DNA of 59,780 bases, filler included, from Bipalium vagum (taxonomy: Eukaryota), in NCBI GenBank assembly GCA_037834085.1. It is 3 parts of 3 records of this genome, joined end to end, with 100 filler letters (N's around TTAATTAATTAA, not from the genome) between each part and the next. Parts side by side here need not be neighbours in the genome. Positions count along the whole stretch, not along the records: positions 20,883 to 43,967 come from JBBMKC010213366.1; 2 more parts are not named here. One strand, given 5' to 3'. The notes below the pieces were generated by a model. The model had not been told where the DNA came from and made no database searches. It saw nothing but the letters and a program-made list of their open reading frames with translations. Made by a program: the position numbers and the translations under genes. Of the stretch, positions 4,901-43,829 are shown in pieces; position 1 is the first letter of the stretch, and each line of letters opens with the position of its first letter.

Positions 4901-7900
4901 TCTTAATGATGAGTCACGTTCTAGAAGACTCTCAACAGTTTATTCCCAAGCAATTATGTATTATTTGGAAGAAAATCCTTGTCTCAGTGTCAGAAGACTT
5001 TCAGATGAAGCTCAGAGTCCGAAATCTTTAGAACACCGCAAACGTCTGTTTCATGGCAAGAGAAACAAGAGATGCAAAGTAGTACTGTATGACCAGATTC
5101 CCGAAAAAGTGGAAAAACGTTTGCAAATATATAAACAATTCCTTCCTTGAAAATTATGAAGGATTTCTAAAAACCATCGTTACCTGGGATGAGAAATGGA
5201 TGTACTCTCGGAATCCAGACTTGCGAAATCAGTGGTTAAGCCCTAATCAGACTCTCATATTGGTTGCCAAACGACAACAGTTTGAACACAAGGTTTTCTT
5301 GTGCGTTTGGTGAAATTACGAGGTCCCAATACACTTTGAATTGGTTCCAAATGGACGTATAATAACAGCTCAGTCTTATGTTGAGCAGTTGCAATGTATG
5401 TATGAAATCTTTCGTTCCATGGCTCATTAGCTGCAAGGGAAAAGTTTTCAGAATGTGGAAGAAGTGAGAACCGGTATCATTGAATTTTTTGTATCAAAGT
5501 CCAAATAGTGGTCCGTTATCGCCCAATAATATCATATTTATCTGCAACGTGTAGTTAAAGAAGCCTAGAACTCTATTTGTCACGAGTAGTTTGACATCCC
5601 AAGACTCGTAGGATAAGAACAAAAATCATAAATAGTATTTCTCTAAAAACCTACAACTAGGACACACTCCAATATCCGCTGCTCCGGCATATTGGACGAT
5701 ATACTTGAGGGTAGGAATGTCTATCCATGCTCCTTATCTTCGTGGCATACTAATGCCCAATAGTATGGAGGGTGAAAAGATAATGAAGAGGAATGGTTTT
5801 TTTAAACGTATTTTTATGGTGCTGAGTGATGCATAAACGATTTTTCTGAAAGGATAAATCCTGAGAACCTTATACATATTCAAACACCAACAGATTATTC
5901 CGAGGAATAATGAAGAATGTTCTTTCCTTTTCTTTAGAATCTATGATATAATTTTGAAGTAGGACATAGGGTGTATAGTCGAATGGGTGAGGCGAGTTGG
6001 GAATTCTACTTTCTAGACTCAGATAAGATATTTTTATGCTGTTGTGATTCTTTTTGGATTTTGTCTGTTTGTTTGGTAAGTTGGGTAAGTTTCCTAAGTC
6101 GAAGATGGGCAAAGATTTGTGCAGCTGAAGAATGACGAAAAATACCAACACCAATGAAACAAGACGATGACTGGCAAGCAATCAGATTAAAGCCAATAAA
6201 AATGTTGATGGGAGTAAAGAAGAAAAAAAACGGATTCAAGTCAAAAATTACAAATTAAGGTGACAGAAAAGACTTTCACAAATAAAGTGTTGATTTTTTA
6301 AAAAGAATTAACCGGGAGATGGTTAAAGACAATTAAACACATATTGCAGTGACCACGAACTTTTGGGACATCCTAATACATAAAAATAATAATAAATAAA
6401 TATATAACTAATAATAATCAAATAATAATAAATAAATATCAATAAAGAATAACAACAATAATAATAATAATTATTATTATTATTATTTAATTATTTTAAC
6501 TTTATAAAATACTGTCAAGTATCGATTGACCTTACTTACACTCGAAAATTAAATTTTTCAATCAAAAATAAACCGCTGAAATTATTTTAAAAACGATTTT
6601 GACACATTTTTTTGTTTTAATCAACTGAGATCAAATCTTCGCTCAGAGTTCTCTTTTTTGCGCCTTCGTTTGCATATCAAACATTGAAAAATAAAAAAAC
6701 GAAAATCGATCAATCAACACAGCTTCGTTTTTAACTCAGTAAATCTTTTGCCTATATTTTTATGTTTCGACAGTCTTTATTGCCATGCGCATTTTTTTAT
6801 AAAATATCATTGTTGAATATTTTGTAAAGATCCATTCCCAATCTTCAAAAGGTCTTGTGCGATCCAAGTCAAATGTAAGTGCGAAAACATTGTTTCCTAA
6901 ATGTTAATGCATCGGTTTTCTTTGTTTTGTGTTCTGTGGAGTTTATTTTATATTTTGTTGGATATATTGGTGCATTTTTATTAATCTCCTCAATACACCG
7001 AAGTAGAACTTATATGCGGCGAGCTGCCTATATTGTATTATTATTATTATTATTACTTTTTTGCCTCTCACAAATTTACAAACAAATATAATTATCAAAC
7101 CACGGTTTTCCGTTAGGTGCTCGATGTTGTATTATGAACCAATTAAACCACAGTATGCATCATATTATTAAAACCACAACGTTTTTTCATGTTTTTAAAA
7201 TTTATCTTAACTATGAAAAGTATTTAATCAATATTTTTGTGAACAGTGTTTCTTGTTGATCATAAATTTAGTGTGAGAAAGAATTATAAAAAAATTGTAA
7301 TTAACAATATTACCAATATTTTCAACTAGTAGGACATCGATCACTTAGCATCAATTAACAAACGCTTAAGCATACTGTCAATAGATCTGTGGAGCATCTC
7401 ATAAAAGTTTTCATTGTGGAACCAGATCCTGTCGATGCTACTGATGAGATTCTTCTTCGTTGTGTGAGTCATCTCGTGCAGAATACTCTTCATAATGCCC
7501 CAGATATTTGAAATAGGCTTCAGATCCGATGAATTCCCTGGCCAGACATGACATTGACATTGTTAGAAGACAAAAAATTGGAAACAACTTTGGCTTTATG
7601 TCAGAGTGCGAAATAATGCATGAATGTGCAGTTAGAAGTCGATCCGAACCAATTTTTTATCAGTGACAACAACTGTGGCCTCAGGACTTCTAGATATTGT
7701 AATTTTGTTCATCATGCCATCGATCACATAGAGACATCTGGCGCCTTTAGAACTGATAAAGCGACAAACATGACCTTGACTGGATGCGTAATGGTTTTTG
7801 TTACCGGTGGTGGACTATCCGGTGTTTGCTAGACGTTTTTCTTGTTAGCTGATTGACAATCAAATATACTTTCATCACTGAAGCACACCTTCCTCTAGAT

Positions 7901-20882: not shown

Positions 20883-21100
20883 TTAATACAATATCTTGAA
20901 TTGTATTAAAATAATAACTTTAGATTATTCAAATTATCATAATGGAGTTTAGAGTAGACCCTTGTGTTAAAGTAAATGGTATTAATATAATTTACTTTTA
21001 CCGTTGTGAAACTTCATTATTGAAATTAAAAGGTTGGATAAAATTTCACCAAGGGCTACTGTCTCGTCTGGTATTCTTGGCAGTTTAATTTACAAGGTTT
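20883..21100 (+). repeat. Duplicate of 31061-31275 (sulfotransferase upstream region)
   Basis: 20883-21035 is identical to 31061-31213 (153 bp), followed by about 60 bp of diverged homology. Confidence 0.9.
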
Positions 21101-25319: not shown

Positions 25320-27810
25320 GCTTCCACGGGTTTTGACAATACGAAGAATTTTAACATATGCATTCAATTTCAAAACTCTAAAATACAAATGCACCATAAG
25401 ATCCATAATATTGTACAATTTTTCGATGAAAGCAGAAATCTTTCAATATAGAGATTTTGTTTGGTGACAAAGTGAGGTAAGTGCTTTTCAAAATCATCTT
25501 TTGAGTTCAGTTTTTTTACCATTAATGGAGTTCTGCAGTGAATGAAAGAATGAGAGCCTGTTAGTACAACATCAGACATATTTGTAAGTTTGACAAAAAA
25601 TGGCGTAGCGCTGCTTCCCACTGTACTCGTTAAACAGATTCAACTTTTTGTTCTGGTTGGAGTGCTTTGTGGTACTATTTAATTCATATTTAATCCAACC
25701 ATGTACAGTGCGTTATCGTCCTTGGAGCCAGTCTCTACTTGTCACAGTTGGTATGTTCTCACTCGGTCCTCTCCAAAACCCTCTTCAAATTATATTTTTA
25801 CCTAATTTTTAATTTGACTGAACAAGATATTCATAAACTACAGATATAATACCAGCACCAACAAAACACTTTGGCGTATACATGTACTTAATGAAAGAAT
25901 TACTTCCAAGACTAAGTATACTTTTCAAGAGACGACGAATATTTGGTTCAATGGTATTCACTCCTTGAGTTATCTCATTGAACGTTATGTAAATATTTTG
26001 AAAAGCAAAAATCATTCGCGAATGAATAAGAGTGTGATGGACTTTCAACTTTTGCAATGCGTCAAGAATTCTTTGGGAAATAATTCGTAGCTGTTCGATA
26101 ATGTCAGCAAATAACGATCGAGGTGGTGAATGAATATTTTCCCAAAAGTCAACACCCAAATATCGATGTCTCAGTAACAGTGAACGTAGAAATTCACTAA
26201 TCACCAATTTTCAAAGGACTTGTGGAACACGAACAAGAGCGCAGTTTGAAGGCCGAAATCTCAAATGGAGCCAAGATGACACTTGAGCTGCTGGATTCAG
26301 GAGCTCTTGCATGTGTAGATGACTTCTGGCAAAAAGAACAACATCATCTGCATAAGCAAGTGTGCTCAACCGGTGTTCACAAATCAGAACCCCACCGCTC
26401 AACACTTGATCGAGACTGTTTAATATTTGATTCATTCCAACATTAAACAACAGCATAGATAACGGACATCCCTGCCGAACACCCACATTAATTTTAATAG
26501 AATCTGTAGTAAGATTGCCGCACATAAAGTATGACTGACAATTACTATACAGGGCTTTGATCAATCTGCGCGATTGAGAGCCAACTTCCATTTTACGAAG
26601 ACAACCGGTTATGAAAATGATATAAATGCTACCAAAAGCATCCGCAACATCAAGAAAAGTAATATGCAAGGGCATTTGTAGTTCTCGGCGATATCGATGA
26701 ATTAAATCACAAAGCAGATAATTATGCTCAGATAATTATGCTCATTGCAAGGACCCAAACTCTTTTGCATTGGATGTAAAAGATTATTATTATTAAGCCA
26801 ACCAGAAAGTTGTTTAGTCAAAACTGAAGCAAATAATTTATAAGAGCAATCAAGTGAAGCTATTGGACACAAAGAATTAATATCATCATATTTTCCGGTT
26901 TTCATAGGTTTTGGAATAAGTAATGTTGAGAAAGATTTCCATATGGAAGGAATAGAGGCATTCTCAATAATTCTATTCAAAAGAGCACCATAAATATCGA
27001 ACAAAGGATCACAATATGTGATATTACTGATACCAGGAGCCGAATTTTTACATGATTTCAAAACCGATTTCAAAACATCAGAATCTATTCGATGAAAATC
27101 AAACGGTGAACCATGTTTAAAAAGAATATTGTCAGAAAATTTTGACCAATCACAAGCATTAGGAACAACAGATTTTTTACTGTAATACTCGATTTTATCA
27201 TCGGATGATGGAGTGCAATCAACTACAGTTTTATCAACAATGATTTTAAAAGCAGTTGATGGAGAAAACCGGTAAACTTTTCTTAGATATAGATCAGTTG
27301 TTAATCTTTGACCTGAAGATTTACCAAGAAAAAAGTTCTTTTCTTTAATCTGTCTCAATTCGTATATATGGTTGACAAGTTTTGAATCAAAATCATCGTT
27401 AGAAAAATTTTGTTCCACACAAGAAGCAAGACTTGCAGCCATTGATATACGAGAAACGAAAGGACTTTACGGTGACACAGTATATACTTCAGACTTTCAA
27501 CAGGTTCAACAGATTTTGTAGAATTCTCAGAAACAATCTTAGATTCAACCTCAGAAACATCACATATCTTACTCTAAACTATCAAAGGTTTCAGGTAAGA
27601 TGGTCTAGATTTCATAAAAGAAGAAAATGCAAAAATAACAAAATCAATAAAATCCACAATTGGCTTCTCAAGCTCTGCTGGACACTGCAGGCGAGAATTT
27701 TTATAAATCAAAAATCTGTCACAATTATCGTGCACAACATTGAATAGCCGATTGATCTGATTAATCGTCTGTACTGATATCATTTTATGTGGCATATTCA
27801 CATTATTTTT
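25320..27810 (-). mobile_element. Second RLE-type (NeSL-like) non-LTR retrotransposon, decayed, with internal deletions
   Basis: ORFs 26702-27442 (SAPGISNI, LIPKP, YKLFAS), 26211-26675 (FLDVADAFGS, GVRQGCPLS, AYADD), 25809-26207 (RYLGV); degraded C-terminal region to about 25320. Confidence 0.88.
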
Positions 27811-29996: not shown

Positions 29997-30872
29997 TCAC
30001 TCGTAAACGAATTGTAGGTCAGCATCTTTAAATTTTCTTTCAATTCTTTCGTCCAATATCGAATTCTGTTCGTTGGAAAGGGTATTTTTCCAATCTCCGA
30101 TTTCTCCTTTTCTCAAAAATTTAAATCCATTTGTATATGTTACGTTTACATTCGGATTTTTGGACATAGTTTTGAACGACGAGTTATGCACTATTTTCTC
30201 TTTCTCTTCTTCCGATAAAGTCTCTCCCAAGAATGCAGCTATTCTTTCGACATTAGTTGATAAATTTCTTAAAAGGTCTTCGTAAAACAGAATCAATACA
30301 TTCTCTCTATCTCTCAGACTCCACCATTCCAAGTTATAGTCAAAATATTTTCCAATAAAAGATTCGTCCATTAAAAAAAGGTCAAAAAAGTCGTTAAAAT
30401 CGATGTTCCATTTCTTTTTCCAATGTGAAAAAAAATGAAAATTGGAGACCAAACAGTCCTTTGGGTTTCTCATTACTACAATAAATTTTGGACAGGCTTT
30501 TTCCACATTCGCCTTGATGAATGAATAAGGGACGTGTGTAACAGTAAATCTATAAGGCTCGTTTCTTTGAGAACTCAACGTATCTATTGGACTTTGAGTC
30601 AATTCTTTATTATGTCTAATATCAAATTCGAAAAATGGAATTCTTTTTAAATTCCGCTCCACCATTTCTCCCTTTTTCACAGATTTTCGATTTTTAATTT
30701 GCCAAATGATTTCCTGTGTAAACGTTGTCCCACTCCGATAAGTACTTGATAAGATAATATCCGTTGGTAGAAATTCGAAGTCACAGACTTGGTCCAAGAT
30801 TTCTGGTGTCGTATATACGGCGAAATCGTGGCCTTTATAATTGAGTACGTTGTAAATCTTGTGCCTGTTCAT
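29997..30872 (-). CDS. Cytosolic sulfotransferase (Sulfotransfer_1 family), 291 aa, intronless CDS
   Basis: 5'-PSB loop variant STYRSGTT, catalytic His in VTHVP, 3'-PB motif RNPKDCLVS, YEDL, C-terminal FLRKGEIGDWKN. Confidence 0.95.
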   Translation of the reverse strand: MNRHKIYNVLNYKGHDFAVYTTPEILDQVCDFEFLPTDIILSSTYRSGTTFTQEIIWQIKNRKSVKKGEMVERNLKRIPFFEFDIRHNKELTQSPIDTLSSQRNEPYRFTVTHVPYSFIKANVEKACPKFIVVMRNPKDCLVSNFHFFSHWKKKWNIDFNDFFDLFLMDESFIGKYFDYNLEWWSLRDRENVLILFYEDLLRNLSTNVERIAAFLGETLSEEEKEKIVHNSSFKTMSKNPNVNVTYTNGFKFLRKGEIGDWKNTLSNEQNSILDERIERKFKDADLQFVYE

Positions 30873-31904
30873 TCTAAAAATGTTCTCAAAGAATAACTAC
30901 ATCATTATATCTCATCAAATTAGACTACGTATTGTATTGTCTAGAAGCTTACCAGGCCGTTGACCATTGACAATTCAATATTATTGTTAAACATTGAAAT
31001 ATGACATTGTTGAACTGATCAGATTGATATCTATGAATTTCAGAAACCTCGTGGAGACAATTAATACAATATCTTGAATTGTATTAAAATAATAACTTTA
31101 GATTATTCAAATTATCATAATGGAGTTTAGAGTAGACCCTTGTGTTAAAGTAAATGGTATTAATATAATTTACTTTTACCGTTGTGAAACTTCATTATTG
31201 AAATTAAAAGGTTAGATAAATTTTCATCAAGTGCTACTGTCTCTTCTGGTATTATATGCGGTTTATTTTACAAGGCGTATCCGAAGGAAGAAGACCGGTG
31301 TAAATTAAAAACAACACATAAAATATAAATATACTGTGGACTCTATTATTTGAAATCTTGGTTATTTGTAGTTTCCTTAGTAAGACTTTAATTTATTTAT
31401 CTGAATAAAATTGAACTTTTTTGAAATCCCAACGGTTCAAATAACTAAGAGCTCACTACATATATATATAATTAAACCATAAATATATATTTAATCCATC
31501 CTCTTTTATATTAACATAATTCAGTGCTGTTATCAAGACACTATTGGCAGAACTGTTTCTTGAGATTAAAATCGGTTTACGAATATTAATATTAAGATTT
31601 CCTGTCTCACTATAATTATATTAATTATTTATTATTTAGTTATAATTTTCTAATCATTGACCAAAATTCAAGTGAGGCACTGAAAATTGATGAAATGTAT
31701 TTTTAATAGTATAATCAAATAATGAAAATTATATAATATTAAAAAACTGTCACAGTTTCCTAGTAAGCTGTGGATTGATCCTGGGGCAATTTACCAGCGA
31801 ATATTTTTTAGTTATTTTGATCTGTGTATTCCGCTTACTTTTTTTTAATATGGTATGTATTTTAATGAAATTGGATATGAGGCTCTTCTTGGAATGTCAT
31901 AGTA

Positions 31905-32449: not shown

Positions 32450-33672
32450 AGTTAATGTTTTTAGATTACTTAGCACACTAAGTTGAAAACTGGATTTCTT
32501 TATATAGAACGGCTCACATTAACAGAAAAGTCAAAAATTGATTCCTTAAAAGATAGTCGAATAGGAAGATTACTCTTTATCTGAAAATGTCTCACGTTAG
32601 CGTAAATAATTATTGCAGGATAAATAAAAATTTGGTAAATATTTAAATAGTGGAAAGAAATCCTCTTTATCTTTAGGAGATAAACGACATTTTTTCATCA
32701 AAGCTCTTAATGTTCACGTGTTATCTTCTCGAATATAAAAAGAATTATAATTATTAGTTACAGTATGGATAAGACAACAAATATTAAAAGAAAATAATTT
32801 ATCAGAATGGAAGAAGAGACAGGATAAACCTAAACTAAACAAGTATAAGATAGTATAAGATAAGTACAAGTATAAGTCACTTGGCGTTCATCGAAAAGTA
32901 CACGACATGAGATAGGGAATGTAAAAAAGTTCTTTTCAGTGATGAGAAAAAGTTTAATCTAGATGCTCTTGACGGTTTGAGAGAAGACCGTTTGACCACT
33001 TGAGAAAAGAAGATGAAAAATGCTACAGTCGTACCTTTGGCGGAGGATCATTAATGATATGCGGAGCTTTCTCATTCGTTGAGGGGTTACCTTAATCATT
33101 TATATCCACTAAAATGAAGGCAACAGAGTATAGAAATTAACTTTCGGTTCAATTAACTGACTATGTAAACCAATTATTTCCCGGAAATTTTCGTGTTTCA
33201 ACATGATAATGCACCTATTCATAGTGTCAAAGTGCCAAAAAGATGAAATAAAGAAAAAGTTTTAGAATAACCATCACTTTGTCCAGACTTAAAGCCAATA
33301 GAAAATATATAGGGTATCATTGTTAAGCGTTCATATGCCTAAAGGAGACAATTTAACATTGTTGGAATGACATTCACATAAATAGAACAAGAAACTTGGT
33401 ATTATCCATGATAAACCTATTTTTAATGTCATTAAGGCAAACGGAGCTCAAACAGTTCAAAATAACTGAATTATACATGATGTTTGAAAATATAAATGTA
33501 ATGGAAATAATTTTATTTCCCTGTTAAAATAGAAAAATTATTAAATATACATTTATTATTTGATCTCTATTATTTATTTAACCTTAATCCACTTACTAAA
33601 AAATTCTCTGTATTTAAAAAAATATATAGAATTTTCAAAAATATTGTAAGTAATTCAATTCCCTCTACAGTA
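32450..33672 (+). mobile_element. Tc1-like transposon, decayed
   Basis: FSDEKKFNLDALDG, FGGGSLMICGAFS, FQHDNAPIH, PDLKPIENI; ends ..ctacag-TA. Confidence 0.82.
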
Positions 33673-34164
33673 TATATATATATATACATACAATACAAAT
33701 GAAATTAAATTTGGAGATAAATTTGAAAAATATAATTATAAATCAAAACTTTTAAATTAGGTAAGATTGAATTATTTTAAAATATTCAAGTTAGTAATAA
33801 TAAAAAACATTTTTTAATTTTCAAGATGAATTACTAGACATAATTAAGTATTATCTTAAATATATTAACAATAAGTTCAGTTATCAAATTTTCATTTAAT
33901 ATAAATTTATTCATCAATTAAAAATTTTATTTATAAATAAATGAAATATTAATAAATCAATTTTATTACAACCAGAAAAAAGAAAAAAGAAATACAGTTT
34001 TATCAAATTTATTTAGTTTTTTAAATAAGTATGTAGAACAAAAAAAAACAAAAAGGGTCTAGATGAAAATTAGATTAAAATTAGATTAAAATTTAGATTA
34101 GTTTTATTTAACTAACAAAGTTTAGGTTGTTCCTCATATGTTTAATTACTATTTAATTTGTTAG

Positions 34165-35200
34165 AATATATAAGAAATATTAAAAATAATGAAAATAAAG
34201 GTTTTGCTTATTCTATAATTGCATTTACATCCAGCAATGGATCATAGTGATAGAGTCATTATCTTCCATATATATCAATTAAATTTAAATGATATAAATT
34301 TTCCTGTGAAAGTAGAAGATATAAAAAAATTTAATAAGCAAAATAATATTTCAGTAAATATATTTGAAATTGTTGAAAATATAATATTAATACCAATTCA
34401 TATAGAATCTTGTATAGCTCGTCTAACAATAGTAGAAGGAAGAAAATGTAATTTATTGTTATTATTATAACCAGTATGTATTATGTAAAACTATGAATAT
34501 CTTTTTTAATGAAAAATTACATAGTAATCACATTTATTTTAACTGTTTTAATTCTTATTATTCAAAATATTTATTAAGAGAACATATAAGTATTTGTCAA
34601 GATTTTAAAGAATCAAAAGCAACATTTCATAAAGATGAATATTGCCAATTTAATAATTATTACTTTAAAATAAAATACCATTTGTATTATATGGTGTTTT
34701 TTGTAACTTTGAATTTATATGAGGAAAATTAAATATAAACCAAAAACCATTATCAATAGGAATTTATATTAAATCCAATAAATGTAACATAAATGATAAG
34801 TCAATTAAAAATTTTAATTCCATTTTATTTTGGTAATGAATCTGGATATGATTTTCATTTATTTTTCAAAGAATTAATAAAAAAAAAATATCCAAATGAC
34901 ATAAATTTATAGTTCCACATACAGATTATATAAGTTTTAGTTTTAAGAATATTAGATATTTTAATTGCTTAAGAATGTGTTCAAATATTTCTGTTAAAGT
35001 TATGGGAGAAACTTTAGTAAAATCTAATAAATATGAAATTTTAAAATCTTATGACTTAAAACCTTAGAAATCATTTTATCCTTATGAATATATAAAAGGT
35101 TCTAATTACAATGAAGTCGATAAATTAATATCAAATAAGATAGAATTTAAGATAAATGATTTTTTTCCTAAAATAAATGGTTCTATAACTAAAAATGGAA
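34165..35200 (+). mobile_element. Polinton/Maverick (adintovirus-like) protein-primed DNA polymerase B remnant
   Basis: Broken frames give KNNENK.FAYSII, LHPAMDHSDRV..INFPVKVEDIKKFNKQNNISVNIF, NCFNSYYSKYLLREHISIC, NESGYDFHLFFKEL, FYPYEYI; characteristic of the Polinton pPolB N-terminal/exonuclease region. Confidence 0.8.
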
Positions 35201-36409
35201 GAGATTTTTAATGGAGGGATAATTTTATATATTCATTTTTCAATTTATTTTCTTAGAAAATGGATCAAAATGGTGTTGTGAATTTTATAAAATTAGTATC
35301 ACTAAACATAATAAAAGTCATCATGAAAATACGATAAAACATGAAAAAAATAACGAAAAAACCACAATAAAATCAACGATAAAAAAACTATTAAAAAATT
35401 ATATCAAATGAAATAAGTTTTAATACATAGTAATAAATAATAAGTTTTTAATAAGTAAGTTTTAAATATTCAAGAAATTCAACAAAAAAATCAGTTTTTT
35501 AAAAAGCAGATGATGATTTACAGTCAGCAATTACAAATAGTACATTTTAAAAGAAATTTACAACAGTGAAATATCCAGGAGAATTACATTAATATCTTTA
35601 AACCCCATTATTAATGCTGCATTTCAATTTACGATTCAAGTGGGCTCGAGTGAAATTTTCATAGAAGTCTGTTAGTGTCTTTTAAGAAAAAATGTTCAGC
35701 CAAAATTGGAATTCAGAAAATGTAAAAAATAGGAAAATACAGAACGCATTGGAAATATTAGACAAATTCGTAATCAATATTATTCTCATTCGTTTGTAAG
35801 TGATCAAGAAAGAAATAGAGAAAATATTTATATTGAGGAAAGACAAGAAAACGCTAGAATTACGCTATCACTAGATAATAATTTTTTACATAATGTAATA
35901 TAGATAAACCAATAAGATTTTAGATACAGACTAAAACGAGGTTATTATGTTTATGAATATGAAAAAGAATATAATAAAAAAGAAATCCAATATACTATAA
36001 AAGTCATAGAAAAGAAATTATAGAATATCAAAAGAATTATATTCAAAATAATCCAAATCTTTGATTTAAAAATAATATTCAAAGTAGTATTTTAAAGGTT
36101 TTAAAGGTAAATCACAAAAGGTATTAAAATTTTGAATTTTTTAGAAAATCGTTTGTAGTAAACTTTGATAAAAATATGAATTGGAAAATTTATATAAAAT
36201 ATTGTCACATGGATTATATTTGACCAATATCAGCATTTGATTTATCAATAAAAATTTTTTTAATTAGACAAATTTGAAAAATCTTAGGCTATTGGAAGTA
36301 AAAAAAACTAAAATATAATAAAATTGGCATTAGTTTATTTCTTAAATTGAGTGGATTAAATTAATGAACTCCAAAATAAGCTGATTAATTCACAAATAAT
36401 TTTAAAACT

Positions 36410-37815
36410 GCAACACCTTCAAATCGCTGGAAACTCCTAAAGAGTCTTCTTCTACTACTTCAGCGGAGATATCTTTTGAAGGATCTCAGGTAATGATGAT
36501 TTCGTTATTAAAAACAAAGAATATCGGCGAATCCTCATGTATTTCTTCTGAATATCAAATATCTGCAGATAAGCTCCAATAAGCTCTTCAACAGAAAGCT
36601 GTATTTGTAGATGTTACTACATTTAAGCCCGGACACTTTATTTCCGAGCATGTATTATCTTGGTAAGGATGTACTTATGACTATCATTTCGCCTGGCAAT
36701 CGCTTTAAACCAAATGTAGACCAAACTGGAATTTCTGATACCGCCTTCGTCAATGGAATGGACGAACCAGCGGCTATTGTCAGAATAAAGGAATGTGTTC
36801 AGAAAAAAGTACTTATTGGAAACCAAATGGAATATTTCCTGACAATTTGCGCAATCCCAACGCAACTTATAGATAGGTATATTGACTTTCAATATATACC
36901 ACAGTTGCGGGATTCTCTAAAACTTCCTTCTAACACAGTGTTAAGACTGAATCCCCTTGCAAACAAATTTAAAATTCCCGAAATGGCATCAATTAAATTA
37001 GAACCTCAATGGGCAGAGTGCAATGTGTTCAACATACACATATACTTATAGAAATTTGGTGCCAAATTGAAACCTCTTTGGCCTTCGAGCTAACATTGAT
37101 GTGTGCTGAAACTCTTCTTCACAACAACAATGAGGCCATTATAAATAAACCTCCTCCTTCTCCTCCATTGTCTTATCAGCCATTCGCAAGTAGAAGTGCT
37201 CGTGGTACAAAGATTCTCACTGATATCATTCGGACTCAAAACAGATTTTTGGAAAAAATACCACCACAATTTCGAGTCCCTGAAGTAGCATTACCCAATC
37301 CTCGTATTCCAAGCGCACCGCCTCCTCCACCACCGTCTGTACCCCATTTCGATATACAATCTGTCGTGTCATCTTCTAACATCGATCAATCAGATTACGA
37401 AGACTGCATTCTATCCCTTGATGACGACGATGAAGTCTATTTTGAGGTACCAGAAGCCTCGGCCATCCCATTGCCAATAAAAATAGACCCAACTGTATCT
37501 GCAGTACCTGGCAGTACAGAAAAAAAGGAATCACAAAGAAAACGTCCCCACATAACTACACTCATTCAGAAAGCCAAAAAACTGATTATTCCTCAATTGA
37601 CGCAAACCAATTTTTCCTCAGTAACCTCAGTTCGAACGCAAACCATCAATCGTAAAAAACTTAAGGTCGCTTCCCAAACTTCCAGATTTCATCAATTATT
37701 TCACGCCATACCTCCCTCTTACGCAATTTATATGGACGCCTTTCTCACAACATTCAACAGCCAATCAATTAAAAAAGAAGTACTCATTACGAATGCCTCA
37801 AATCTTCTAAAATAG
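36410..37815 (+). pseudogene. Frameshifted ORF: DEDD 3'-5' exonuclease-like domain (catalytic residues degenerate) plus Pro-rich/acidic tail
   Basis: Joining frames gives KAVFVDVTTF..VLMTIISP..DQTGISDTAFVNGMDEPAAIVRIKECVQKKVLIGNQMEYFL..YIDFQYIP..LRLNPLANKF..WAEC, colinear with the RNase T/REXO4-type pattern; then the 37009-37815 ORF with PPPSPP, APPPPPPS, DDDDE. Confidence 0.55.
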
Positions 37816-38784
37816 AAATCTAGCAAAAAAATATTATACAAATATAAATATGGAAATAATTTAAAACAAAAAACTAAAAAAGGAAATAATTAAAATACAA
37901 AAATAGAATTAACCTTAGAAAATACAATATAAAAGGTTAGCTTAAAAACAAAAATATGGACAAAAAAATTTTGGTACAAAAACAATACAGTCGTGACGAC
38001 AATCACAGTTCCTGTCAACAAGTCTAACATTAAACTATTTAAGCACGAGCGTTCAAAACATTTTCAGAGTAATTCATACATAGAACAATACAGAGACAGA
38101 ACAATTCACAATTAAATTCGAATTCAAACTCGCAGACGAAAACCTGAAATGACAAATTAATACGGAAATTCGATCGACATTCAAAGCCAAACTCCTAATA
38201 CCTTCAGTAGTCAATATTTTATGCCCTTTACATACAGTAAAATTTATTTAATTATTATTAATATTTTTTAATTATTATTATTTCATTCATTAAATATCAT
38301 ATCTGGTAAACTATACTAGTTTGCACAGATTATTTAAACTTATTTTAAAATCCAAACTTCACTATTACATAGGATTATCTTCATTTTTGTTTTCACATCT
38401 TCCATACTTCTCTTTTTGTTTATGATTTACACAACAGTTAGGGTTGATAAATCATCTCAGGACCTTGCCACAGGTTACAGGATAACTGTGTAAGGAATTA
38501 AGGATTCTCGTTTAAACTCCCCTTGTAAAATCACATTTTTACAAATAAGAATATTTGTATTCGATTCCATTTGTTTTCACTTATCCTATTTTATTTACCG
38601 TTCCGAATTACACTCCATAAATCCCTCTGATAATCATATACGTTTATGTTAAGTAAACTAGAAGCCCATAATCGATATTTGTAACTTAAACTCATTCAGG
38701 TTTAGGGAAACTTAACAACAATATGGAGAAAGTTCGGAGAAAGGCGGGTTTTAGTAAACTAATCATTTTTCTATGATAGTTAAC

Positions 38785-39325
38785 ATCTAGTAAATGAACT
38801 TCATAAAGAATTTAGAAAGCCTAAACAACTTTTAAGTCAAAGTTTTAACAAATATAATATTTAAAGTGCATATTTAATATTTGTACCTGGAGAGAGAGAT
38901 TCTAAAATAATATTAACAGTTATTGATTTATATACTCGTTTCGCATTTGCTGTTTCTTCAAAAAATAAACTAGAAAATCTATAACACATGCTTTTGTTGA
39001 AATATTTAGAGATTACCAAAGAAAACCTAAAAATTTTTAGGTTGATAAAGATACTGATACTAAAGATATTTTAAATAATATAGATTGAAAACTTGAAAAC
39101 AAAGATATTAATCCTTTAGAATTAAAACCAAAATTTAATTTAGAAGATAAAGTTCGAATTTTTAAATATATCAATTTGTAAAAAGGATATACAATCAAAT
39201 GGACAAATGAAATTTTTATTATAAATGAAATATAAAATCCAGTCGTTTGTGAAATAATTGATTTAAAAGGAGAAAAAGATCCTTGAAGATATTATGAACA
39301 TGAGCTTCATAAAGCACGTTTTTAA
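38785..39325 (+). mobile_element. Polinton/Maverick retroviral-like integrase remnant
   Basis: NELHKEFRKPK, ILTVIDLYTRFAFAV, KPKFNLEDKVRIFKY, KGYTIKWTNEIFII, YYEHELHK; typical Polinton integrase core and C-terminus with stops and deletions. Confidence 0.82.
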
Positions 39326-40006
39326 GTTATCTTAGATTTTTGTTTATTAAGTGTTTGTATAAAGTTATTATTCTACAAAACATTCCTCTAATTAATTGGT
39401 AAATGGGATAAATAGTTTTAAAGATTAAAGTTAACTAAAATAAATTTTTAAAAGAAAATGGCGGGAAAATATTTATTTAATATCCCTATAAAGTGGATAA
39501 ATTTAATAAATTTCATTAATGTTGATATGGGTTTTTTCCGTCAATCATTTTTTTTCGGCTTTCTTTTATTCTCCTTTTTTATTTGTTGATTGAGAATATA
39601 AGGCTTCATACCTACTCTTTTCTTCATTAAATATTTTTAACATTTGATTTGTTAATTCCGATAATAATAAATAGTGAGATTATCTACTAATTGTGTTTCA
39701 ATTGATAATTGTGTAGTTTATTTGTTAAGTAAAAAATTACTAAAATATTTAGCCAATTAAAATACACAAAAGTTTGTCTATTTAATTATTTTTTACAAGA
39801 GTTTGACAAAATATCGTAAAAACCCAATAATCTGATGGGATGTGACGTGCTTTTAACTAAAATTAAATCACTGTTATCCACTAAATTATTCAATATTTAG
39901 TGTATCAAATTTAAACCTGACTTCAACTCTTAGGAGGTGCGAAATAATAACAATCAGTAAAGCAATAGCTTGTGTTGAAATCACAAAAAACTCACACAAA
40001 ATCACA

Positions 40007-43000
40007 ATGATATCAATTACACAGAAGTCCCACGCTCAACAAAGGAAGGACAATCTCAAACTCCCATGTGAAGCGCACTCAGCCAAAACAATTTATTGTC
40101 CTCTCAATATTAGTAACCAGCATTGGGTTCTATTGATCTATCCGAAAGAGGCCGAACAGTTCCATATGGATCCTTTAGAAATCCCTTTCAAACCGGATAT
40201 AGTTCTCAAATTAATTAGAACTCTAAATCTTAATTTGAACAAAATGTTCAATATGAACTGCCGGATGAGTGTTTCCCCATATCCAGAAATTATACGCCAA
40301 GACAACAATTACGATTGTGGGCCCTTCATCTGCGCCTACAGTATATTTACCATGAGACTGACCACTGACAAGTCATTTTCTTTTAAAGTCGAATTTATAC
40401 AACAAATCAGAGAAAAAGTTATGGAACTGCAAAATCAAAATGTTAAATTAGCAAATTTTGGTGGCTTCGGGAATCAGAAAAATAGCCGCTCTTTACTTAA
40501 TCATAACATTTCTGAAACTCGGAAAATTACTTGCAAATACCATTCTGTCACAGAAAAAATACGACCGGCAGTAAACTCCGATAAAATAATTACGAGAAAT
40601 ATTAACTTTTTGTTAAATAATAAGCACACCAAGATTTTTTTCGAAAGCCTTCAGTTGGGTGAAAAGTATATTTTCTTCGATTGCACTGTATCAGCAGCAA
40701 TTCTTGATGGATGTACAGATTATTTCTCCAATCATCTTGATCTCAATATGATAAACAATATTTCTGTAATATTTCTCATCTTTCAGCCCCCAAACTCTAA
40801 ACAACGTCTTCTAGTTTTAGATTTTGAAAAAAGGTTTTCTTTTGTTATCAATCCGTCATTTTCCCACAGCTCCGAAATTGCATATTCCATAGTGGGTACA
40901 TTAAAAGAGTTCTTTTTTGAAATTCGGGGAAATGTTGATTGCTTTGATTTGAGTGAGTGCCCTCCACACGAAACACGTGGCTCAGGTCTCTACTCAAATT
41001 TAATCTTTTGCGGAATAATTGAGAACTATTCAGGTGGTGTAGACCTGACTGGTTTTAACTTCCAGTCCATTTGGGAAAAAATTTTATCTTCATTTGATCT
41101 AATGTGTCTTGAAACCCCTAAGTTTGCTCTTTCTCCACTTTCAATGAATGAGAAAAGGCTCAGCAAAAAAGATAGACAAAGTAGGGCTAAGGCACTTTTA
41201 ATAGAAATGATCGAAAACGATTATGACGTTGACCGTATCATGGATAAAATTTTGAGTCTCTTTCCTTCTCGACCTTCTGTTTCACGTCATAAACCATATC
41301 TTGGGTCAAACATGTTTAAAGAGAAATTGAATAAATTTGCTGTAAGATCTAATTTTAATAAAAATATGAAATACACAGTAAATAAGATTCTCAATTATGA
41401 TATTATTGATTCCCGACTATCAATGATAGATATTATTGGACACTTTACTTACTTTTTACCTGAAAACAAAACTTGGATTTTTAACGAATTTTGTAAGTCT
41501 TCCTCGACCGAACTATATCTTGATTTGATTTTACCTGCTGAAGTGTGTATCGCACTGAAAAAAGTTGATAACACAACTCCTGGATGCGATGGAATTACAT
41601 AAAGTAACTTTAAATATTTGGATCCTGATGGAGACATATTATGCTTTTTGTTTAATAAAATAATTGAATCCGGAAAATTTTCATCTCTTTGGACTTTGTT
41701 TAAAACATCTTTAATTCCAAAACCTGGCAAAAGTTGATGTCACCTGGTGTCTCCTCTGTACTTCCTACAAGATTTTCGCTGCGATTTTCTGTAGCACATT
41801 AAACATCTGGGTCAAGGAAAACAATCTTCTTTATTTTTATCAAAAAGATGGCAATGAGTATGAAGGATGTGTCGAGCATAATGCGGTTCTAACTGCAGCT
41901 TTAAAACTCTCTAAATATTCAAAAATTTACCAAATTTCCATTGCTTGGCTCGACATCAAAGACACTTTTCCGAGTGTTCCATACCAATATCTGTGGTCAC
42001 TTCTTCGATAAATAGAGGTCGGCAAAAACTTCGTAAAAATATTGGAATTATGTTACAATAACATCAGAACATTTTACAGCTGCGGGCCTTTGACAACGCC
42101 GAATCTGTCAATTCGGAGAGGTGTAAGACAAGGCTGTCCACTTTCCATGTTACTTTTCGGAATTGCAATAAATCCGGTTCTTGAAGCTGTAAACTCTGTT
42201 TCGGTCCCATTTTTTATGATTGGAACTTCTGAAATAAGAGTTTCGGCTTATGCAGATGATATCGTCATTATTGCCAATAATTCTGCTGACTTACAGAAAA
42301 TTATCGATGCAGCCGTTTCAATCACTAAGTGGTCAGGAATGCACTACCATCCTGAGAAATGTGCTTTCCTAAATTTGCCACAAGATGAAATGAGTAGTAT
42401 CATTTCCATCTACAATATTCCACTTCGTCGGCTGACTTCTAAAGATTTCTATCAGTATTTGGGTGTTCCTGTTGGTGTGGAAATTGAAAGCCTACAAAAT
42501 CCTTTTGCATTCTCGTTTGGTTTTTTCATTCAGAACCAGAGAAGTAAAAATTAAAACGATTTGCAGACCATTAAAACCTGGTTCGGGTAATGAGAATAGA
42601 AGTTCAAAAATCAGATCATACTTAAAACAAATCCTGAAACTACCACCACAAGCCGAATCCAACTACCTCTATTCTTCTATAGAAAATGGAGGAACTGGTT
42701 TGACTGATTTGCGTGATGAATATTCTACTCAATGTATTGTACAAGGTTTTCGTCTCTTGACAGTATCATGCGATTCTACTCGTAAAATCATTTCTGACTC
42801 TCCTTTTTTGTCCCGGCTACTCGTCTAACTTCATCTCCTTGTAATATTTCGGATTGTCTTCAATGGATTAATGGTGGTAAGACAAAATATAACTCAACAT
42901 TGAAAAAATCTTGGTGGCTGAGAGTGAAACAATCCATTGATTATTTTAGAAAATCTTTAGCTATTTTTATTTCTTTTGAATTGGAAAGAGATATGGTTAC

Positions 43001-43829
43001 CCTTCGAATTTCTTCTGAAAGAAGAGGTACCTCTATAAGCATCTTTAAAGAACAAAGTGCTTTGTCTCATCTTCTCTATCTTTACATTCAAAGTTCTTTC
43101 GGTTTGAAGTGGCACAACATCAAGCGGAGTAATCTTATTGCTGATACTGTTAAACTGTGCCATACTGCAAATAAAATGATTTTTAACGGTGGTTTGAGTT
43201 ACTTTGGCTTCAAATTTATTCATAAAGCTCGCTCAAACTCGCTTCCTATTAATGCAAGACCATGGAATAAATGCAAAGATTTTCTGGTCTGCAGACTCTT
43301 TCACTTTTCTGAGGAATCAATGACGCATGTGTTGCAAAATTGTTTTCCAAACTTGTCATTGTGAACAGAGCGTCATAATGCTTGCTTAAAGAAAATTGCT
43401 GATGCACTTTGTAGTGCTGACATTATTGTAGTCATGGACAAGAAATGTGAGCTCTTGAAAGATTGCAACGAACGAGTTGATCTTTTGATCACATATGTTG
43501 AGAAAAAAATGACTTTTCTCATTGATATCAAATGTCCGATGGATATCCTGGAAAATTTCAGAAATTCAGATAAAGACAATTTAGCTAAATACGCAGATCT
43601 TCGTAATCGACTTCAAGTGTTGAAGCCTGATTATAAAGTTGTATTACATACATGCATAATTGGGTCTCTAGGAACAGTACCACCAAAAACAGTTGATGTA
43701 TTGGAGAAAATCGGTGACCGGAGTTCAAAAATTGGTTCACTTTTCAAGGAATATGTAGCATCAAATATTGAATACTGGACAAAGATTTGGCAGTACCATG
43801 TTACAGGAATACTGAGATCTATCTATTAG
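40007..43829 (+). mobile_element. RLE-type non-LTR retrotransposon (NeSL/R2-like): Ulp1 protease(s) - RT - CCHC knuckle - PD-(D/E)xK endonuclease; frameshifted and probably 5'-truncated
   Basis: Ulp1 motifs QHWVLL..MDPL..RQDNNYDCGPF; RT motifs TPGCDGIT, LIPK, AWLDIKDTF, GVRQGCPLS, AYADD, YLGV; degenerate knuckle CRLF..ESMTHVLQNC followed by RHN; RVDL..IDIKCP..KY..IIGSLG. Several stops and frameshifts between the supplied ORFs. Confidence 0.92.

Follow-up and report, generated by a model that had tools for sequence, protein, structure and literature searches.

An island of coding DNA on the plus strand of a Bipalium vagum contig (GenBank assembly GCA_037834085.1) is the broken, 5′-truncated rear piece of an accessory gene. 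We regard it as an evenly balanced proposition that this gene came from an envelope-bearing Ty3/Gypsy element and that its intact product would be a non-cutting, RNA-binding shield for the element's transcript. The window, meaning the whole stretch of DNA that was analysed (59,780 nt, filler included), consists of AT-rich animal DNA; it contains pieces of host genes with introns (RhoGAP and cofilin) and many transposon remnants. The copy in the window is itself a dead fragment, and its value lies in the family to which it belongs and in the type of element that carries an intact relative at locus L001.

Extent and condition of the island

The initial annotation had delimited the island at 36410–38240. 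The island is real and has a DEDDh fold, but it is only a fragment, and its first ~120 bp (36410–36530) are probably flank, since they match none of the relatives described below (E 34 against their profile) and show a higher read depth. Its GC content, 0.37 at 36531–37090 and 0.41 at 37091–37815 against 0.18–0.28 in the Polinton-like flanks, is higher as had been observed; such values are ordinary for transposon ORFs here, the element at 39857–43829 having 0.35. It is also more intact than its surroundings, with longest stop-free stretches of 146 and 240 aa compared with 98 aa in the pPolB-like and 39 aa in the integrase-like DNA.

Three-frame translation recovered the DEDDh motifs in the order originally proposed, together with the two frameshifts (near 36650 and near 37090), the first of which has cost about six codons of beta-strand 2. 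It gave two stops, at 36580 and 37049, where a single one had been counted. A linker and the ExoI strand lie in frame 1 at 36531–36649 (+; stop at 36580, ExoI region at 36601–36618), with a left edge that is placed by inference. The ISG20-like DEDDh core follows at 36650–37051 (+), reading in frame 2 from 36650 to 37048 and terminated by the stop at 37049. The next segment, 37052–37815 (+), comprises the end of the last helix, the second frameshift, and a 241-aa Pro-rich, low-complexity tail (11.6% Pro) in frame 1 that ends at 37815. The CA-skewed tract noted past the ORF is A-rich, has more C than G, and is non-coding (37816–38240, +); it is probably the element's 3′ UTR. No Pfam match was obtained in the island. 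The cupin domain that lies upstream in relatives is absent from the window copy, along with everything before it.

Contigs of sequencing run X1, which may be the source of the window itself, were aligned over 33000–38200; this yields a summed depth that is rough and not a copy number. This depth is 476–1346 over the island, compared with 15–35 for window-identical contigs, 103–229 at 35784–36305 to its left, and 81 at 38046–38200; the multi-copy level reaches about 38045 and is low beyond. The X1 contigs carry 735 variant rows relative to the window. There are likely tens of diverged copies of the island, with edges that differ from those of the flanks.

Relatives, fold, and catalytic positions

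A HMMER search of 1.84 billion protein representatives returned three matches, of which two are real (P0001, 32% identity, and P0002, 33%); the third, P0003, was dropped as a repeat artefact. Profile searches added a further 30, bringing the total to 32 relatives, all from ENA or JGI, which share about 23–32% identity with the window. A profile of 16 relatives of at least 290 aa, built with the window left out, matches 36611–37048 at E 1e-17, while none of the other segments of the window, 2600 in all, does better than E 0.76. The window's ExoI segment is in register with the relatives' ExoI strand, albeit at E 23 only, and nothing upstream of about 36580 matches this profile. P0001 and a cluster of 20 rows make up two branches, and the window sequence is a third, long one. 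Searching with a single window segment in a word-indexed database gave no match, and no relatives were found in viral contigs or in prokaryote genomes.

Two candidate extensions of the similarity were rejected. Reading 36460–36520 as the last cupin strands was unsupported in the comparison with the relatives' profile, and homology of the Pro-rich tail to the relatives' tails was given up after 58 of 500 shuffles scored equally well. The Pro-rich tail, which had been described as a component of the protein, is thus present in the window but lineage-specific.

That the island encodes a DEDDh fold is virtually certain. The core at 36650–37051 matches RNase_T clusters of the ESM Atlas at 0.90, with agreement in 10 of the best 10 family matches, and a three-sequence profile matches ISG20L2 at E 1.4e-5. 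Across 34 family members, Pfam gave no DEDD family match, including none to the Maelstrom or Exuperantia families. AlphaFold was run with a 34-row alignment on the natural ORF of locus L002 in place of the window peptide, and reached pLDDT 73; a single-sequence fold of P0001 had a pLDDT of only 29. The closest match to residues 180–344 of the L002 model is human ISG20 (Foldseek E 2.8e-7; Z 16.0, rmsd 3.0, 159 aligned), and the alignment covers 159 of 168 residues. ISG20L2 follows at Z 15.0. Exuperantia, at Z 9.5, is more distant than ISG20, so the closest fold is that of ISG20 and not those of Maelstrom or Exuperantia, which the initial annotation had cited.

Residues 35–141 of the same model resemble cupins (Z 9–10, rmsd 2.5–3.3, 85–97 aligned, over a tool background of 7–8), and these matches include dimerisation domains (CENP-C/Mif2, Z 9–10). 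The ESM Atlas returned no usable match for the relatives' N-terminal domain. The modelled cupin resemblance gives no function. Residues H59, H85, E80, and E136 of the cupin in model ma607333308ea (residues 35–141) are conserved in both full-length lineages, and a metal site in the relatives' cupin is possible. The intact protein is therefore predicted to consist of a cupin, an ISG20-like DEDDh domain, and a tail; the window sequence is the rear part of such an ORF, and not the stand-alone DEDD protein with a Pro-rich tail that had been envisaged.

The nearest solved folds, ISG20 and ISG20L2, are host enzymes, which would suit a decayed processed pseudogene of a host REXO4/ISG20-like gene. We consider this origin very remote, as no host exonuclease is found among the matches at E ≤ 0.001 in the 1.84 billion proteins, Pfam shows no RNase_T match, the island has multi-copy depth, and it matches an LTR-borne family at E 1e-17.

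The canonical catalytic residues are missing throughout the relatives. In the 34-row alignment A4, in which L002 duplicates P0013, Asp or Glu occupies the ExoI Asp position in 0 of 22 rows, the ExoI Glu position in 0 of 22, the ExoII Asp position in 0 of 26, and the ExoIII Asp position in 0 of 25; His is found at its position in 0 of 25. In 21 of 25 rows an Arg fills or adjoins the last Asp position (ExoIII). The ExoII register was taken from the alignment with ISG20L2. For ExoI and ExoIII we assumed registers based on structure ranges and the numbering of ISG20; moving the ExoIII register by one gives Cys in the relatives, again non-acidic.

In the window itself, the ExoI motif is degenerate as first described, keeping the first Asp (36610) with Thr at the Glu position. 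ExoII lacks its Asp, having Tyr there and a Glu one residue earlier (36830). The ExoIII motif, which had been read as AEC, also has no His, but its register is ambiguous: if the window Cys is aligned with the family Cys, a Glu falls at the ExoIII site (37016) and may occupy the catalytic Asp position. Three of the four sites in the window lineage consequently hold or adjoin an acidic residue, more than in its relatives, and the lineage is less clearly dead than they are. To judge by these residues, standard catalysis by the window lineage is unlikely, while a residual metal site in it is possible.

Selection among the relatives bears on how the catalytic set was lost. The initial annotation had suggested dN/dS below 1 as a check, and pairwise values of 0.08–0.19 were obtained for the DEDD domain at six of the relatives' loci, from 7 of 15 pairs, the other 8 having saturated synonymous sites. 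The corresponding values are 0.11–0.25 for the cupin (3 of 10 pairs measurable) and 0.14–0.33 for the tail (5 of 5 pairs). Because the catalytic set is absent in all relatives that cover the sites and yet dN/dS in the domain is 0.08–0.19, its loss is a selected trait of the family and not decay of this copy. We think it quite probable that the family is non-catalytic. None of the three findings that the initial annotation had listed as counting against it (lack of a DEDD match, intact copies with canonical D-E-D-D, or a single-copy spliced host paralog) was encountered.

An active nuclease of the same origin, with a rearranged site that trims the 3′ ends of element RNA or cDNA, would fit the three sites at which the window lineage has an acidic residue in place or adjacent, as well as the invariant D242, E243, and D283 (model numbering) elsewhere in the DEDD domain. 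Transposon DEDDy domains with intact sites have also been proposed to process 3′ ends, in the text of the two sources available (PMC5408684; PMC3706591). However, the relatives have no acidic residue at any canonical position and lack the His, and D283 aligns with a conserved non-catalytic Asp of ISG20L2. We therefore rate the active nuclease as distinctly unlikely.

The carrier element and the proposed function

A metagenome scan yielded eight loci (L001–L008) from 512 candidate stretches; they all come from one data set and do not represent independent hosts. The relatives are carried by a Ty3/Gypsy LTR element, as seen at L001 and from LTR-element markers at three more loci. This agrees with the earlier proposal of a transposon-borne accessory protein without introns in its gene, whose element is independent of the Polinton. 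L001 (380–9934) contains an apparently intact Gypsy polyprotein ORF of 3184 aa with a zf-CCHC, a fusion protein, protease, reverse transcriptase (RT), RNase H, integrase, and a C-terminal transmembrane tail. The fusion protein is of the mononegavirus type (PF24664, Monjiviricetes, E 1e-90, residues 1150–1531) and lies in frame between gag and the protease, which starts at 1666. A ubiquitin-like stretch is weak (UBX, E 0.006), the RT is closest to that of Ty3 among solved structures (E 3e-81), and a PBS-like site precedes gag. The 607-aa ORF that contains P0001 is separate and lies directly behind the polyprotein. L001 thus shows in full an accessory ORF placed after pol (PR-RT-RH-IN) and before the element's 3′ end.

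The same position is supported in L005 by an upstream integrase C-terminus (E 4e-11 by tblastn to L001), and in L002 by a PBS-like site and the gag of a next unit 1.6–1.7 kb downstream (gag E 9e-19). L004 and L005 have the same transmembrane ORF in common. The remaining four of the eight loci (L003 and L006–L008) have no direct LTR-element marker; L003 has non-coding DNA in common with L002, and L006–L008 are only 1.0–1.4 kb long. The transmembrane ORF (L004:1–1527; L005:278–1978) has a transmembrane helix at its C-terminus and an internal pattern that resembles a duplication. It lies between the integrase and the cupin-DEDDh ORF and weakly resembles the tail of the L001 polyprotein (E 0.003–0.006).

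For the window copy, an LTR-element origin is probable. No gag-pol match was found in the window, and neither a PPT nor an LTR could be defined at the copy. A direct repeat of 8 bp, at 36363 and 38793, was discarded as a target-site duplication, being merely one of 30 8-mers common to both ends.

Capture of DEDD domains by transposons is already known, and what distinguishes the present family is a dead-site, cupin-fused, ISG20-like accessory ORF in an envelope-bearing Gypsy element. The DEDDy ORF3 of the bdelloid LTR elements Juno and Vesta and of Athena/Terminon elements is likewise a separate DEDD-fold ORF, downstream of pol in the LTR elements, according to the accessible text of PMC5408684. 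That ORF3 is RNase D-like with its invariant residues intact (DEED; PMC5408684), whereas the family described here belongs to the ISG20-like DEDDh type, has lost the catalytic set, and carries a predicted cupin at its N-terminus. Dada transposons have also captured a DEDD domain, but they are DNA transposons with a DEDDy domain inside the transposase and, in the portion of the paper available, all four catalytic residues conserved (PMC3706591). The transposon-borne DEDD domains in the excerpts of these two papers thus keep their catalytic residues (PMC5408684; PMC3706591), and those of the Gypsy family here do not. This disarmed ISG20-like fold extends over three deep branches, is fused to a cupin in the two with full-length members, and has been under measured purifying selection among the relatives.

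The layout of L001, namely a CCHC gag, ubiquitin-like stretch, in-frame fusion protein, protease, and pol, is common to the giant planarian Gypsy elements Burro and GYPSM1 as described in part of PMC6431247. The Burro polyprotein is given there as about 4900–5100 aa, compared with 3184 aa in L001 (PMC6431247), and L001 gave no Pfam matches to BIR, ankyrin, MATH, or BCL2-like domains. As L001 is smaller and lacks these matches, we term it Burro-like and not Burro. The excerpted description of Burro names no DEDD or cupin ORF (PMC6431247). Gypsy capture of a Jingchuvirales glycoprotein is reported as not found in arthropods in the available portion of bioRxiv 10.1101/2022.06.22.497255, and the accessible parts of PMC5718144, PMC3985635, PMC11296320, and bioRxiv 10.1101/2023.08.22.554363 contain nothing on a dead DEDD ORF in LTR elements. 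A full-text literature search returned no cupin-DEDDh or dead DEDD ORF in LTR elements; Repbase and supplements, outside its scope, may describe Burro accessory ORFs.

Among host proteins, ISG20, ISG20L2, and REXO4 are alike in fold (Z 16.0 for ISG20 and 15.0 for ISG20L2) and motif order, but the family here has lost the catalytic residues, shares 14–16% identity with them, and is transposon-borne. Exuperantia, PML PXL, Maelstrom, and EXD1 likewise have a DEDD fold without the standard catalytic set; they are host genes of other DEDD branches, whereas the family here has a cupin and no SAM-like domain.

We propose that the gene began as a host exonuclease of the ISG20/REXO4 type taken up by an ancestral Gypsy element; its catalysis would have been lost while its nucleic-acid-binding cleft was retained. 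The Arg that fills or adjoins the last Asp position would suit direct contact with a phosphate. The protein could cap or coat element RNA against host 3′–5′ exonucleases and small-RNA-guided decay, or aid in assembling RNPs. A single copy of the window's family would then have inserted into a Polinton-like remnant before losing its 5′ part.

The function itself, an RNA-binding shield, is argued by analogy and reaches even probability at best. Its grounds are the resemblance to Exuperantia and PML PXL, an ISG20 fold that is retained in full, the Arg conserved among the relatives, and the pressure that PIWI exerts on LTR elements in planarians. Exuperantia and PML PXL are described as RNA-binding dead DEDD folds in the available text of PMC5785220 and PMC13659232, respectively, and piRNA targets in planarians include LTR elements and Polintons in that of PMC8532177. 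Against it, the DEDD domain is only mildly basic (23–26 K+R versus 18–21 D+E).

This modest net charge is in keeping with a dead protein of the same origin that binds no RNA and acts as a scaffold or a decoy titrating the partners of host exonucleases, or as a structural protein of the particle. The cupin matches to dimerisation domains (CENP-C/Mif2, Z 9–10) point the same way, as does the range of host-regulatory domains that Burro-type elements gather in the excerpted account of PMC6431247. Such a role would not explain why the whole substrate-side architecture of ISG20 is retained (159 of 168 residues aligned), and the dead DEDD folds cited above (Exuperantia and PML PXL) do bind RNA; we think it unlikely.

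A narrower form of the shield proposal is that the disarmed ISG20-like domain and the cupin make up a counter-defence protein of a Burro-like Gypsy element, which would bind the 3′ ends of element RNA and block host exonucleases or piRNA-guided decay. This is rather speculative and on the unlikely side; if true, it would be a transposon-encoded pseudo-nuclease suppressor of silencing in animals. Few counter-defence proteins of animal retroelements are known. Since planarian LTR elements are PIWI targets in a system tractable to RNAi, the family is a concrete and testable candidate.

The flanks and other features of the window

Both sides of the island had been read as Polinton remnants. The left flank (33830–35740, +) is a shredded high-copy repeat (summed depth 839–9603) that we take to be a Polinton pPolB with a small Polinton gene, and the right flank (38784–39320, +) is a shredded integrase that is presumably of Polinton type; in both cases the reading is based on motifs. 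High depth and a weak rve match in the right flank (E 0.22, under the cut-off) favour this reading, but the left flank gave no Pfam or PDB match and its pPolB is confirmed by no tool match. It is probable that the island sits inside a Polinton remnant. The block at 35741–36400 has low depth (103–229) within this high-depth flank and is bypassed by joints in X1 contigs; it is probably another small insertion.

The position of the island between Polinton-like pieces on the same strand, and the fact that the window copy's own carrier was not recovered, would also suit cargo of the Polinton in this genome, or the front ORF of the element at 39857–43829, drawn from a pool of ORFs that circulates across transposon types. 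ORF sharing between retroelement types is documented in the available text of PMC5408684. Against this, the composition, intactness, and depth of the island are unlike those of the flanks, the truncation point of the gene falls within the flank, and all relatives with informative context are in LTR elements and none in viral contigs. Polinton cargo or a front ORF is accordingly improbable, and origin from a Gypsy element is preferred.

The left edge of the island could be a piece of the flank of a different kind. By resemblance, 36420–36530 (+) is a candidate for the P4-P5abc half of a group I intron of the Polinton-like flank. A 17-base P-element word from this segment recurs in viral loci, at least 123 in number, and in 117 of them a Q-like motif lies downstream; RF00028 was passed by 5 of the 20 viral loci tested. 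The P4 partner at 36525–36530 pairs perfectly, with letters unlike the viral ones and two hairpins in between, but such a partner also arises in 610 of 5000 shuffles. The segment itself matched neither Rfam RF00028, nor a sequence profile, nor a covariance model that excluded the seed. X1 depth peaks at 5393 at 36470, X1 joints connect 35728–35741 to 36401–36448, and an X2 contig matches 36409–36496 only. Group I introns occur in protist Polinton-like viruses, according to the accessible part of PMC12220804. We judge a split group I intron remnant in the Polinton-like flank to be slightly favoured. In that case a Polinton intron was interrupted by the Gypsy fragment, which would be the younger of the two elements. 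Possible pieces of an intron remnant are also seen at 35630–35741 and 38690–38790.

Several other elements were observed in the window. The non-LTR element at 39857–43829 (+), presumably NeSL-like, has an N-terminal Ulp1 protease (PF02902, E 1e-7), an RT, a probable restriction-like endonuclease, and several breaks. A second RT-bearing non-LTR fragment lies at 26211–27466 (−; PF00078, E 1e-18), and an intronless sulfotransferase ORF is found amid transposon remnants at 29997–30896 (−; PF00685, E 4e-61). The segments at 20883–21097 and 31061–31275 form a 215-nt direct repeat with 95% identity, 10 kb apart.
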